Source: Eledone cirrhosa
Taxonomy: Eukaryota
Direction: 5' to 3'
DNA length: 64,000 nucleotides
NCBI GenBank assembly: GCA_964016885.1
Contig: OZ024748.1
Span: 7,502,001-7,566,000 of the forward strand
How positions within the stretch are numbered: position 1 is the stretch's first letter; each line of letters opens with the position of its first letter. The notes beneath the pieces are model-generated. The model saw nothing but the letters and a program-made list of their open reading frames with translations, had not been told where the DNA came from and made no database searches. Below, one piece after another: positions 11,997 through 59,389 of the stretch. The translations under genes and the position numbers were made by a program.

Positions 11997-12046
11997 GTTT
12001 CAGAAGATCCCGTTAAGGGTGAAAGCAGCGATTCTTTGCTTAAACT
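11997..12046 (+). ncRNA. Hammerhead-fold motif with CAGAAGA core (family D)
   Basis: gttt-CAGAAGA-tccc/gggt-GAAA-gca(loop)tgc-TT-aaac. Confidence 0.6.
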
Positions 12047-12224
12047 TTAATCTGTTATTTTAATAAATATATATATATATGTGAGTGTGTATATATATAT
12101 ATATATATATATATATATATATATATATATATATATATATATATATATATATACACTCACATATATATATATATATATATATATATTTATTAAAATAACA
12201 GATTAAAGATATATATATATACAT

Positions 12225-12275
12225 AGATTCCTGATGATTTCTAAAGAATGAAACAGTTCTAGTCCTGTAGAATCT
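12225..12275 (+). ncRNA. Type I hammerhead ribozyme motif
   Basis: agattc-CTGATGA-tttc/gaat-GAAA-cag(loop)ctg-TA-gaatct. Stems I and III pair fully; cleavage triplet GUA. Confidence 0.75.
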
Positions 12276-12767
12276 CATCTATATTAAAATATATATATAT
12301 ATATATATATGAGTGTGTGGGCTTGTGTAGAATATTAGTTATCTATCTATCTAGCTGCCTCGAAAGATATATAGAAGTGTGTATGTGTACACGTATATCG
12401 ATATACATATATGTGTGTGTGTGTATGTGTGCATGTATATATAAGTGTATATATGTATATGTATGTTTAGACATACACACAAACACATAGATGTAGATAG
12501 AAATATACATAGACATGTAATTCGCTGGAGAATAGTTTGATCAGATATGGCTCCTACATCATAGATAAGCTGTCAGCATTCTAATTTCTTCAGTAGTTTG
12601 TACAGGAGAAGAGACCAGAGCAGAAGGAAGCCATGGAAAAACTTTTGGCAAGCGATTAAATAGAATAAGAAAAATGTAGAAATTACATCTAGAAAGCTTC
12701 AGGCAATATATTCTATAAGATTTGACAATCTTATTTCCAACAAGTGATTGGGTGGTGTTGTGAGGGT

Positions 12768-13015
12768 TGTGTAGTGTGGTGTGGTGTAGTGTGGTGTGGT
12801 GTAGTGTGGTGTGGTGTAGTGTGGTGTGGTGTAGTGTGGTGTGGTGTAGTGTGGTGTGGTGTGGTGTAGTGTGGTGTAGTGTGGCGTGGTGTGGTGTAGT
12901 GTGGCGTGGTGTGGTGTGGTGTGGTGTTGTGTTGTGTGGTGTAGTGTGGTGTGGTGTGGTGTAGTGTGGCGTGGTGTTCTGTGGTGTAGTGTGGTGTGGT
13001 GTTGTGTAGTGTGGT
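12768..13015. repeat. (GTGGT/GTAGT)n pentanucleotide repeat
   Basis: Direct reading. Confidence 0.9.
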
Positions 13016-13616
13016 GCGTTGTTGATGGTGTGGTGTGTGGGGCTCTTGTAGGGGCGGTATATATAAATATATATATATATATATATATATATATATATAT
13101 ATATATATATATATATATATATATATATATATATATGTACATATATATATAAACTGAATATATATATATATATATATATATATATATATATATATATATA
13201 TATATATATATATATATATATATATATATTCAGTATATATATATATGTACATATATATATATATATATATATATATATATATGAGATCGTTGCCTGATAT
13301 CATAATATATGAAACAATTATAATATATATATTGTGTGTGGGAAGATATGTGTGTGTTTCGTTGTGTATATTGGGGTCGTTGATGGTGTTGTTGTTGTTG
13401 CTGCTGCTAGTGGTGGTGTTGTTGTTGTTGCTGTTGCTAGTGGTGGTGGTGTTGTTGTTGCTGCTGCTAGTGGTGGTGTTGTTGTTGAAGGTGTAGTTTT
13501 TTTGTTTTTTTTATTAATATTGGCTTGTATGGAGATTTCTGAATCATAATGGGAGAGATACATACACACAGATATATATATATACACATATATATATATA
13601 TATATATATATATGTA

Positions 13617-13807
13617 TAACGAAGGAAGTGTGGTAAGGAACCAGGTGGACCAAAACGCACCAAAGTACTCAATACTTAGGGTAGTAGAGTCGGTAATAGG
13701 AACGAGTAGGACCCCGACGGCTGAGCTCAAGCCGTTTCGACGGCTAATTCTGGACTTAGCCGTCGAAACGGGTTGAGCTCAGCCGTCGGGGTCCTACTCG
13801 TTCCTAT
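13617..13807 (-). mobile_element. Short (TA)n-flanked repeat (family C) with terminal palindrome
   Basis: Homologous to 15572-15773, 32173-32335, 5975-6105 and 45270-45415. Palindrome at 13696-13807. Confidence 0.7.
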
Positions 13808-14202
13808 ATATATATATATATATATATATATATATATATATATATATAAGATCCCGTTAAAGGTGAAAACACCGATTCTTTGCTTAAACTTTAATCTGTT
13901 ATTTTAATATATATATATTTCTACTTGTGTTTATCTCTCCTCTGTCTACCATCATCTTCTATATATCTTCTTCTCTTTATATTTTTATCTATAATAATTT
14001 CTCCTTTTTCTTTTTCTTTTTCTTTTTCTTTTTCTTTTTCTTTTTCTTTTTCTTTTTCCTTCTTCTTCTTTCTCCTTCCTTTCCTTTACTGTATCTATCT
14101 CCCTTTCTTCCTCCTTTTCTCTCTATATCTTTATTATTAATATTATTATTGATGATGTAATTTGAATTTGTAAATTTGCCGGTTACATATATATTTTTTT
14201 AA

Positions 14203-14312
14203 CAGTTTCCGAAGATCTGATCGAGCTAACATCGTATTTAAATATGAGTGGCATTACTTTTAGGGTTCAGCAACTTTTAGACAACTTTATTAGTGAAACA
14301 ATTGTTAGACTG
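14203..14312 (+). ncRNA. Hammerhead-like motif with variant core and long stem II insert
   Basis: cagttt-CCGAAGA-...-GAAA-caattg-TT-agactg. Stem I pairs and stem III is palindromic. Confidence 0.45.
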
Positions 14313-56704: not shown

Positions 56705-56709
56705 GCCCA

Positions 56710-57175
56710 CTTATTCCTGAGAGGCTCGTCAGGGTAGAATCCTCAAAAACTCCCTCCAGCAGGTCCTGTCAGGAGCAGCTGTCACCAACTGATCTGGCTT
56801 CATTCCCAAGCATGACCAGCCAAGCTCATGGATGTTATCCAACCATCTTGCTCGGGGTCTACCCCTGGGTCTGCTGCCTGTTGATTTTGCCCGTAAAATC
56901 TGTCCAGCGATTCTTTCCTGAGATATTCTAACCACATGTCCATAGTATCAGAGCTGTGATCTCTCGATTTGGAGAAGTAGTGACTCTACCTGATGTGACT
57001 CTCTGATCTCCGAGCTACAAATCTGTCCAGTGATTCTTTCCTGAGACATTCTAACCACATCTCCATAGTGTTGGAGCTGTGATCTCTTGATTCAGAGAAG
57101 TAGCGGCTATACCTGGAGTGACTCTCTGATCTCCTAGCTACGTACTTTGTCGAGTAACGTTACTCTAAAGACCTG
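56710..57175 (-). mobile_element. RTE-like LINE 3' fragment with an internal tandem duplication
   Basis: ORF 56729-56935 reads ERIAGQIL..GSRPRGRPRARWLDNI..AAPDRTCW. About 120 bp is duplicated (56900-57020 and 57025-57140). It abuts a long (GAA)n tract. Confidence 0.75.
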
Positions 57176-57454
57176 ATTTTCTCCAGTGAGCGAGGGTGAT
57201 AGAGAGGAAGTGAGATACAGAGGAAGAAGCCCCCTCAGTAATGGTATTTTGAGATATAGAGGAAGAATCCCCCTCAGTAATGGTATTTTGAGATATAGAG
57301 GAAGAAGCCCCCTCAGTAATGGTACTTTTTAAACAACATCAAAAGGATGAAAAGCAAACGTTAGCCGTGTTGTGATTTGAACAGAAAGCGCAGAGAAACA
57401 GGAGGGGACAGCAAAGGATTCTCTTCGAGGTTCGAACAACTCTACCAGTTCGTC

Positions 57455-57900
57455 TCAGTCTCAGACTCAGAAGCTCCCGCGTCTTGCGACGCATGAGGCA
57501 ATCATAGTGTTCCACCGCGTTCGGTCAGCAGCCAGTTGCACAGCGTCCCGCCATTGTCTGTTTGTCGCTCCCAGGTCCCTCTCAACTGTCTGGCGCCAGT
57601 TCATTTTGGGTCGCCCTCTCCGTGTGCTTCCCTGCGGGCTCCATTTAAGTACTTGGTTCGCCAGTCTCTCCGGGGGAAGTCTCAAAGCGTGTCCAAACCA
57701 GCCCAGGCGTCGCTTGCAGATGGCAGAAGAGATTAGCTGCTGGTTGGTGCGGTTCCTGACTTCCTGGTTTGTTACATGGTCACTCCATTTAACCCCCAGG
57801 ATCTTTCGCAGACACCTGGAATCGAATGCGTCCAACTTCTTCTCTTGGCTGGTCTTAAGGTGACATGTTTCACTTCCGTACAAGAGTATGGACAGCACGT
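57455..57900 (-). mobile_element. RTE-clade LINE 3' end
   Basis: LLYGSET...RCLRKILGVKWSDHVTNQEV...RRLGWFGH...RRGRPKMNW...LAADRTRW, followed by a short TGAGAC-type tandem tail. Confidence 0.9.
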
Positions 57901-58195
57901 TCCTCGCCCTAATAATATTATTACTGACAAAATATAAGGCAGTGAGAAAGTGGTAGAAATATTTTTATGTCAGGCTTTCATATTAAGTTGTCTATGTTTA
58001 AAAATTGGAAGATAGATTTTTAAAAAAAGAGTGAGAGAAAGATAAATAATTTAAATAAAGAGGAAAGGAAAAACTTTATACTCTTCATAGGAGAGTAGAT
58101 CTTAGTCTTAGCTGTACCATGGCAACAAGATAATGAAATCATTGCCGTTGAGAACAGCCGACGGGGAAACTTCTTCAGGCGAGATATCGTCCAGA

Positions 58196-58586
58196 CAATT
58201 TGGGGGAGAGGGAAAAGTTGACTAAATCGACCCAGTGCATTACTGGTACTTTATTTTATCGACCTCTGTAAGAATGAAGGGTAAAGCTAACTTCGGCAGG
58301 ATTTGAACACAGAACGTAAAGGGCTGTAACTATATACCATAAAGCAGGGTATCCGACGTTCTACCGATACTGCCAATAATATTGGTTTCTGATTAGGGCA
58401 CAAGAACAACAATTTTGGGGTGAGGAAAGTTGACTAAATCGACCCCAGTACATTACTGGTACTTTATTTTATCGACCCGTAAGGTTGAAAGGCAAAGCTA
58501 TTCTCGGCGGGATTTGAACTTAGAACGTAAAGGGCCGTAACTCTATGCCGCTAAGCATGTTGTCCGACGCCCTACGGATTCTGCTA
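58196..58586 (-). mobile_element. Tandem pair of SINE family 1 copies
   Basis: Two reverse-complement copies (about 58196-58376 and 58383-58586). A further 3' fragment lies at 58810-58865. Confidence 0.75.
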
Positions 58587-59338
58587 ATATCCACTGAGCC
58601 TTTCGTTGATTATGGAAAACACGTCACTGTCAGTGTAGCTGATACAAGTAATAGACAAAGTAACGTTGCAAGGGAGATAAACAGGTTTGACAACTGGAGG
58701 ACGACTGCTGCTATATTCAGAAACGGTTGCAGGGAAAAGGCAAATGTTTTGGATTCAAATTTATATAAAATAGTTTAATAATCGATAGATTTAATCGATG
58801 AATTAATAATTGTTTCTACTTTTGGAAACAAGGCCAGTAATTACCCAGTACATTACTGGTACTTTAATTAACAATGGAAACACATAGAGTATTGATGAAT
58901 TGGTACAGAAAGGAAAATATGAGTAATATTAAAATATTGATATTATTAGAAGTAATGATATAGCACAGACACACATACACACACACACACACACACACAC
59001 TCTCTCTCTCTCTCACACACACACACACATATTTATATGTATATATATAAATATATATATATATATATATATATACATAAATATATATATATGTTGTACA
59101 CACACACATATATATATACATATATGTGTGTGTGTGTGTGTACAACATATATATATATATATATATATATATATATATATATATATATATATATATATAT
59201 ATATATATATGTGTGTTTATATATATATATATAAATATATTGTTATACTTTGGGAGGGTCATGTTGCCAATATATATATAAATATACATATATATATTAT
59301 ATGTTTATATATATATTTTTATTAAAATAACAGATTAA

Positions 59339-59389
59339 AGTTTAAGCAAAGAATCGCTGCTTTCACCCTTAACGGGATCTTCTGAAACT
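59339..59389 (-). ncRNA. Family D hammerhead-fold motif
   Basis: Reverse complement matches 23836-23886. Confidence 0.6.

Follow-up and report, generated by a model that had tools for sequence, protein, structure and literature searches.

Truncated hammerhead repeats in the window

The window analysed here, 64 kb of Eledone cirrhosa contig OZ024748.1 (positions 7,502,001 to 7,566,000 of the forward strand), is (TA)n-rich, with 33% GC, and contains repeats in which a type I hammerhead can form, with three helices around a core and open at stem I, and with A in place of U at position 4 of that core (A4 instead of U4). The repeats are pieces of a Penelope-like retrotransposon, of which the window holds truncated ends only. 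Searching the window for the core word CAGAAGATCCC gave exact matches at 12001, 23841 and 34017 on the forward strand and at 59374-59384 on the reverse strand; when up to one mismatch was allowed there were six matches against 0.33 expected, a number reached by none of 100 shuffles. Three of the four exact-core copies folded in a relaxed type I hammerhead scan of the window. The core has C3, G5, A6, G8, A9, G12, A13, A14, the A15.1-U16.1 pair and H17, and lacks only U4. Stem I has 5 bp and stem II has 3 bp closed by a U-U mismatch, while stem III has 3-4 bp plus A15.1-U16.1, the pairing that an earlier note on this stretch had described. Stem III, with its 9-nt variable loop, is a real helix and not the absent or tiny palindromic helix III of minimal, dimer-type Penelope-like hammerheads. 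In longer genomic copies stem I continues into a 7-nt bulge and then a 9-bp distal helix, predicted with a probability of 0.94-1.0 in the seven of eight copies where it was scored; the window copies are without the distal helix.

The earlier note had taken four copies to share one 51-mer. All four have the core, but the exact 51-mer is found only at 23836 and 59339. The first of these belongs to a 5'-truncated end of a pseudo-long terminal repeat (pLTR) on the forward strand (23835-23910), which has the complete 51-nt hammerhead fold, core CAGAAGA at 23841-23847 with A4 at 23842, a predicted cut after 23881 and the short 3' terminus, in (TA)n; an inverted piece of the 3' tail (23792-23836, reverse strand) is joined to its 5' side. 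The second (59315-59390, reverse strand) also has the complete 51-nt fold, with its core at 59384-59378 and a predicted cut after 59344. The other two, both on the forward strand, turned out not to be identical to these: the truncated copy at 11997-12070 (core 12001-12007) lacks the A of AGTTT and has 4 bp in stem I, and the one at 34007-34086 (core 34017-34023), which has A4, reads CAAA for GAAA through a private G12-to-C change at 34037, and its hammerhead is not intact. An inverted tail piece (33946-34007, reverse strand) adjoins the latter. Two more truncated copies are present where the note had seen them, one at 13848-13914 (forward strand), truncated at A6 and with stems II and III mutated, and the other at 34396-34464 (reverse strand), truncated at A4, without C3 and the 5' strand of stem I, and adjoined by an inverted tail piece at 34456-34531 (forward strand). 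Besides these, the window has a tail-only fragment with the long 3' terminus and no hammerhead (865-968, forward strand; 98% over 105 nt), a 26-nt remnant of the element's short 3' end (12183-12208, reverse strand) and a diverged (70%) piece of 3' untranslated region (UTR) and intron, of the same or an older subfamily (46281-46422, reverse strand).

A Penelope-like retrotransposon with a hammerhead in each terminal repeat

By walking upstream from the repeats in genomic copies we found them to be end pieces of a 3.27-kb Penelope-like retrotransposon, in which a 3' UTR of ~950 nt is met first, then a GIY-YIG domain and then a reverse transcriptase (RT). As these longer copies lead into an RT-encoding element, the window copies, which are without the coding part, are truncated pLTR ends. 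Three full-length copies (L080, L087 and L091) each have two hammerheads ~3,270 nt apart that bracket the frame, one per terminal repeat, and both carry A4. A further copy, L089, has an open frame of 709 codons in which RT and C-terminal GIY-YIG endonuclease (EN) form a single frame (~705 amino acids) with the motifs RWR at 37, DKT at 115, YRDD at 342, CxCx5C at 560, IVY..YIG at 579, CxxC at 658 and CxH at 686. We rejected a coding constraint on A4, as the frame does not begin until its ATG, ~165 nt downstream of the cut site. A GT-AG intron of ~760 nt lies in the pLTR/UTR, its acceptor ~102 nt upstream of C3, and intron-less (spliced) genomic copies, with two donors joined to one acceptor, also occur (L057, L078, L081, L253-L282). 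The element has two 3' ends, that is, an optional tail, ~28 nt and ~117 nt downstream of the predicted cut, the short one just past the distal stem I helix. Copies terminate in (TA)n at most of the loci printed; inverted 5' pieces are common, and pLTRs and partial tandems are present.

Judged by its sequence organization (RT/GIY-YIG frame, pLTRs, partial tandems, inverted pieces and intron), this is a Penelope-like element with a C-terminal EN. Pfam and PDB sequence searches with its protein gave no relevant match, and the pLDDT of a single-sequence AlphaFold model (33.5) was too low for use. Non-LTR retrozymes are short non-coding units that occur in tandem arrays and are non-autonomous; we rejected this assignment because the motif sits in an RT-encoding element, whose short copies are truncations.

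Protein motifs and (TA)n targets, rather than a tree, would place the element in the Hydra clade, whose members are described with RWK, DKT, a CxCx5C linker, CxxC and CxH around E and N, and insertion at (TA)n (PMC8557442). Our element has in common with them the single frame of RT and C-terminal GIY-YIG, DKT, CxCx5C, CxxC, CxH, the (TA)n targets and a hammerhead near the 3' end, whose short, U-U-closed stem II and cleavage after U are common there too. It differs from them in the length of its unit, which there is generally under 3 kb, in RWR for RWK, a conservative change, in its 9-nt loop III and its 760-nt intron, and in having CAGA: all 26 Hydra rows in File S2 of that paper, which represent 25 families, have CTGA, that is, U4, many of them together with the U-U closing pair and cleavage after U (PMC8557442). 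The Hydra-1_oBim hammerhead listed in the same source is a different sequence from the A4 motif. Compared with the hammerheads of metazoan Penelope elements (PMC4209133), the A4 motif likewise lies in both pLTRs, has an intron near it, is expected to be of low activity and has a family-wide core variant, which there is U3-A8. Unlike the A4 motif, however, that variant is a compensated pair and U4 is kept in all the rows compared; nor is the A4 motif, with a real stem III and a non-palindromic loop, of the minimal dimer type (PMC4209133). The A4 motif thus probably works like a Hydra-clade pLTR hammerhead, but differs from it in lacking U4.

Core position 4 across the genome

In the 3.0-Gb genome, a 29-nt core pattern with positions 4 and 7 left free had 19,976 matches, 19,763 (99%) with A4 and 213 with another base; it is because of this A in the CUGA turn that we do not file the motif as a canonical hammerhead. 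The first 100 of the 213 non-A copies, counted by eye, have T in 37 cases, G in 34 and C in 29: they are background mutation around an A master. A4 was therefore already present in the mobilised masters, as the earlier note had proposed, and decay after insertion is excluded by its presence in 99% of copies. A4 was also found in all 15 copies that cover the site in 664 kb, made up of the window and 600 kb of blind sample, and at 98-100% of depth in four public runs of contigs, one of which may be the source; no RNA run is listed among those that contain the element. As controls, U4 is present in 36 of the 45 type I folds of the blind sample, where at least 10 canonical hammerhead families recur, and in 28 of the 31 copies of another hammerhead family (L126), which was accordingly rejected as a second A4 family, A4 being found in three of its copies. 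A local cluster at G000:C3:139277339-139501845 has at least seven C4 copies, probably from segmental or tandem amplification.

A looser U4 pattern, CTGANGATCC, has 1,093 matches genome-wide. We rejected a hidden U4 subfamily as their source, since of 30 matches inspected 28 are fold-back junctions, one belongs to another family and one is a single T4 copy; 12 further rows with the U4 pattern, picked by hand, comprise five fold-backs, four members of another canonical family, two T4 copies and one unclear case. In the fold-backs, inversion at a TTC-N-GAA palindrome in the core yields a false CTGAAGA, the inverted copy supplying CTG (L153-L181); insertions of this kind generate ~1,000 false canonical cores, and the junction hotspot could mislead motif counts. 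Most genomic copies might have proved to read CTGAAGA, the outcome that the earlier note had set against its own proposal; they do not, and what appears as CTGAAGA is mostly fold-back. The note had also supposed, as one option, that standard searches would miss the variant. Indeed, a 171-nt sequence with a full copy had no hammerhead match in Rfam up to an E of 10, and of the 490 Rfam matches of the window the 150 listed include no hammerhead, the miRNA matches there being microsatellite-driven. Searches based on CUGANGA, and Rfam, thus overlook a family of ~20,000 copies. In the literature searched we found no report of a natural U4A hammerhead family, figures being outside that search and an earlier report possible.

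A sister Penelope-like family, with 51% amino acid identity over 482 residues (loci L385-L404; G000:C1:330004640 and others), has a hammerhead with U4; in all 20 top-scoring copies its core shows the U3-A8 swap (TTGAGAA), its stem II is long and its loop III is palindromic. A further canonical hammerhead family (L172, L376-L379 and L145:3900-4250), with a 2-bp stem II and a U-U closing pair, lies downstream of a distantly related EN (32%). Because both the listed Hydra families and the sister family have U4, the simplest reading is that A4 is derived, and U4 would have changed to A once in this lineage.

Constraint on the fold in older subfamilies

Older subfamilies, represented by EN fragments 70-73% identical in amino acids to the protein of the young family, were retrieved in two ways, with the stems fixed in the search pattern or with only the flanks fixed. 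Among the first 100 of 107 stems-fixed matches, 87 have A4, seven T, four G and two C, and the three T4 rows inspected are all fold-backs. With flanks only, 85 of 86 matches are family members, of which, scored by eye, 84 have A4, one is ambiguous and none has T. A4 is present in all 28 aligned older copies (30 flank-found loci less one unrelated and one duplicate). Counting as alternative alleles those that are non-CpG and occur in at least five of these 28 copies, and leaving out the sites fixed by the pattern, we found them at 10 of 22 free sites (N7, loop II, loop III and bulge) as against none of 34 core and stem sites (Fisher p=1.8e-5); for the core alone, with none of 12 sites, the comparison with the free sites gave p=0.006. 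Across subfamilies, T and A alternate at N7, the only core position that hammerheads leave free, loop II and the stem I bulge differ in sequence and length, and G8, G12, A13, A14 and U16.1 are conserved, as is the presence of a base other than G at 17. Stems that were no more conserved than their surroundings would have spoken against the earlier note; across subfamilies, stems and core are more conserved than the loops. The pattern of conserved and free sites suggests that the hammerhead shape is likely still under selection.

These data bear on whether A4 is simply neutral decay, either of a dead ribozyme fixed by drift in a recent master or by mutation after insertion. Hammerheads are dispensable for Naiad elements, and the three A4 copies in the canonical family used as a control show that A4 can arise sporadically. 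Nevertheless, its near-fixation rules out decay after insertion, and core and stems have stayed unchanged between lineages while almost half of the free sites have changed, so that we give neutral decay hardly any credence. A very successful family has changed a near-invariant core base, yet purifying selection appears to act on the rest of its core.

Candidate splice acceptors near the core

A4 might instead be kept because the pLTR intron needs it in TTTCAG, which would serve as the 3' splice site. The element does have a GT-AG intron, TTTCAG is preceded by a pyrimidine run and a YTRAY-like word, the U4-to-A change is what creates this word, which would make a good acceptor, and the intron of Penelope in Drosophila virilis ends at helix I (PMC4209133). 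Splicing at this site would remove half the core. Against such a role, a genome-wide junction count made for one donor, the main one, gave 274 copies; in the first 100 of these the donor is joined 79 times to the upstream acceptor and never to the AG of helix I or the CAG of the core, neither of which serves as GT-AG acceptor at any of the 14 internal junctions found in the loci collected. We therefore regard it as very improbable that A4 is kept for splicing.

Copy ends and cleavage

The ends of copies indicate which RNA is copied. Among 90 of the 351 copies that include the frame start, 51 span the predicted cut site, 38 start downstream of it and one starts within 4 nt, while none of the 85 3' ends scored lies within 3 nt of the site and all 85 are past it. 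Copy ends are thus not clustered at the cut site, and the templates were mostly uncut RNA. This resembles PAc, the Poseidon element of the anole Anolis carolinensis, which also has two 3' ends (a tail) and AT-rich targets, and whose RNA is copied mainly in uncut form, cleaves only in the presence of the element protein and still supports insertion in vitro when the hammerhead is mutated (PMC11167929). In PAc, unlike here, the frame begins within stem II, and the mutants described are at C3 and G8, with no U4 variant in the text (PMC11167929). Cleavage is accordingly dispensable in the one in vitro Penelope-like system; the role of hammerheads in these elements has been called unclear (PMC8557442), and the A4-versus-U4 difference bears on what such motifs are selected for, catalysis or shape.

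As to the base itself, U4 contacts the A6-N7 phosphate, and a natural viroid hammerhead with U4C, although much weaker in vitro, is sufficient for infectivity in vivo (PMC3088659). The A4 motif is like the natural core variants treated there in that one core base is changed, the fold is intact apart from this, and there is a U10.1-U11.1 mismatch, and weak activity in vitro is reported there to suffice in vivo; those variants are isolated sequences, whereas A4 is fixed in ~20,000 copies and through several subfamilies, and U4A is not named in that text (PMC3088659). Pairwise mutagenesis of a type III hammerhead gave low activity for all changes in the CUGA turn other than a C3-G8 swap (PMC9901934).

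We consider it somewhat more probable than not, from sequence comparison, that the A4 fold is a slowed and probably protein-assisted ribozyme that is still maintained by selection. A4 would lose the contact of U4 to the A6-N7 phosphate and so lower the cleavage rate. The element protein would copy mainly uncut RNA, starting ~28 or ~117 nt downstream of the cut site, and because of this slow cutting would cost little. Some cutting, in late RNA processing or turnover, or at least an active-like fold, would still be needed. In a bolder form, which we put forward as a doubtful proposal, this would be a natural U4A hammerhead whose cleavage depends on binding of the protein that its own retrotransposon encodes, or on a new compensating contact. 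Such a ribozyme would have been tuned down to let copying of the RNA precede its cutting, and selection would hold it in this state across many subfamilies, next to a sister family that went the way of the U3-A8 swap. The earlier note had offered a natural core variant and an attenuated ribozyme as alternatives; the two are compatible with each other, and separating them would need kinetics.

Several observations weigh against a slowed ribozyme under selection. The canonical core of PAc goes with the same lack of ends at the cut site, which is therefore no proof of attenuation. In ViennaRNA the hammerhead fold lies 3.5-5.5 kcal/mol above competing folds in eight of eight copies, for A4 and U4 alike, these energies excluding tertiary contacts. 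No compensatory stem changes occur among the 28 older copies, whose helices are invariant, so the constraint is read from the hammerhead pattern and not from covariation, and the conservation could reflect sequence-specific binding of a protein. The older sample, moreover, consists of copies chosen by a single flank pattern; one older copy among hand-picked rows, L373, has T4 outside a fold-back, and the fold-back check covered three of the seven T4 rows of the stems-fixed search. Given the low activity of CUGA-turn changes in the type III hammerhead (PMC9901934), A4 may also be dead rather than slow.

A catalytically dead fold could be kept as a structural handle, for protein binding or for positioning the start of reverse transcription downstream. 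It would fit the copy ends, all but one of which avoid the cut site, the short 3' end directly after the distal helix, the low activity of CUGA-turn mutants (PMC9901934), the insertion of PAc in vitro with no need for cleavage (PMC11167929) and the lack of covariation in the stems. It fits less well with the conservation of G8, G12, A13, A14, U16.1 and a non-G at 17 while N7 toggles, which is the pattern of a catalytic core, or with the binding and start sites of PAc, which lie downstream of the hammerhead core and not inside it (PMC11167929). On these grounds we hold a dead handle to be possible, if rather unlikely.

At the other extreme, A4 would be a fully active natural variant, compensated by contacts of the stem I bulge, loop II or the long loop III. 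A4 has indeed persisted through many subfamilies with no reversion, there is a bulge in distal stem I, the region through which type I hammerheads form their tertiary contacts, and such contacts have been proposed to offset the effects of core variants (PMC3088659). However, loop II and the bulge vary across subfamilies, which makes a fixed rescuing contact less likely, and an efficiently cutting ribozyme should have left copies that end at the site. Full activity therefore seems to us unlikely. A hairpin that depends on A4 and would inhibit the ribozyme, pairing C3-A4 with U11.1-G12, was considered as well and rejected as a general cause, its predicted probability being 0.4 in the young family and ~0.01 in four older copies.

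Other features of the window

Canonical CUGA type I hammerheads of other families lie in the window at 12231, 24275, 36652 and 60216 on the forward strand and at 59975 on the reverse strand, and 3' halves of the sister family at 13589-13756, 15543-15707 and 32173-32282, all on the reverse strand. Two identical hairpins of mir-1991, a molluscan microRNA, score above the Rfam threshold at 28866-28932 and 30784-30850 (both on the reverse strand). The pair flanks a gap of 200 N at 29465-29664, inside a duplicated stretch that may be an assembly duplication.

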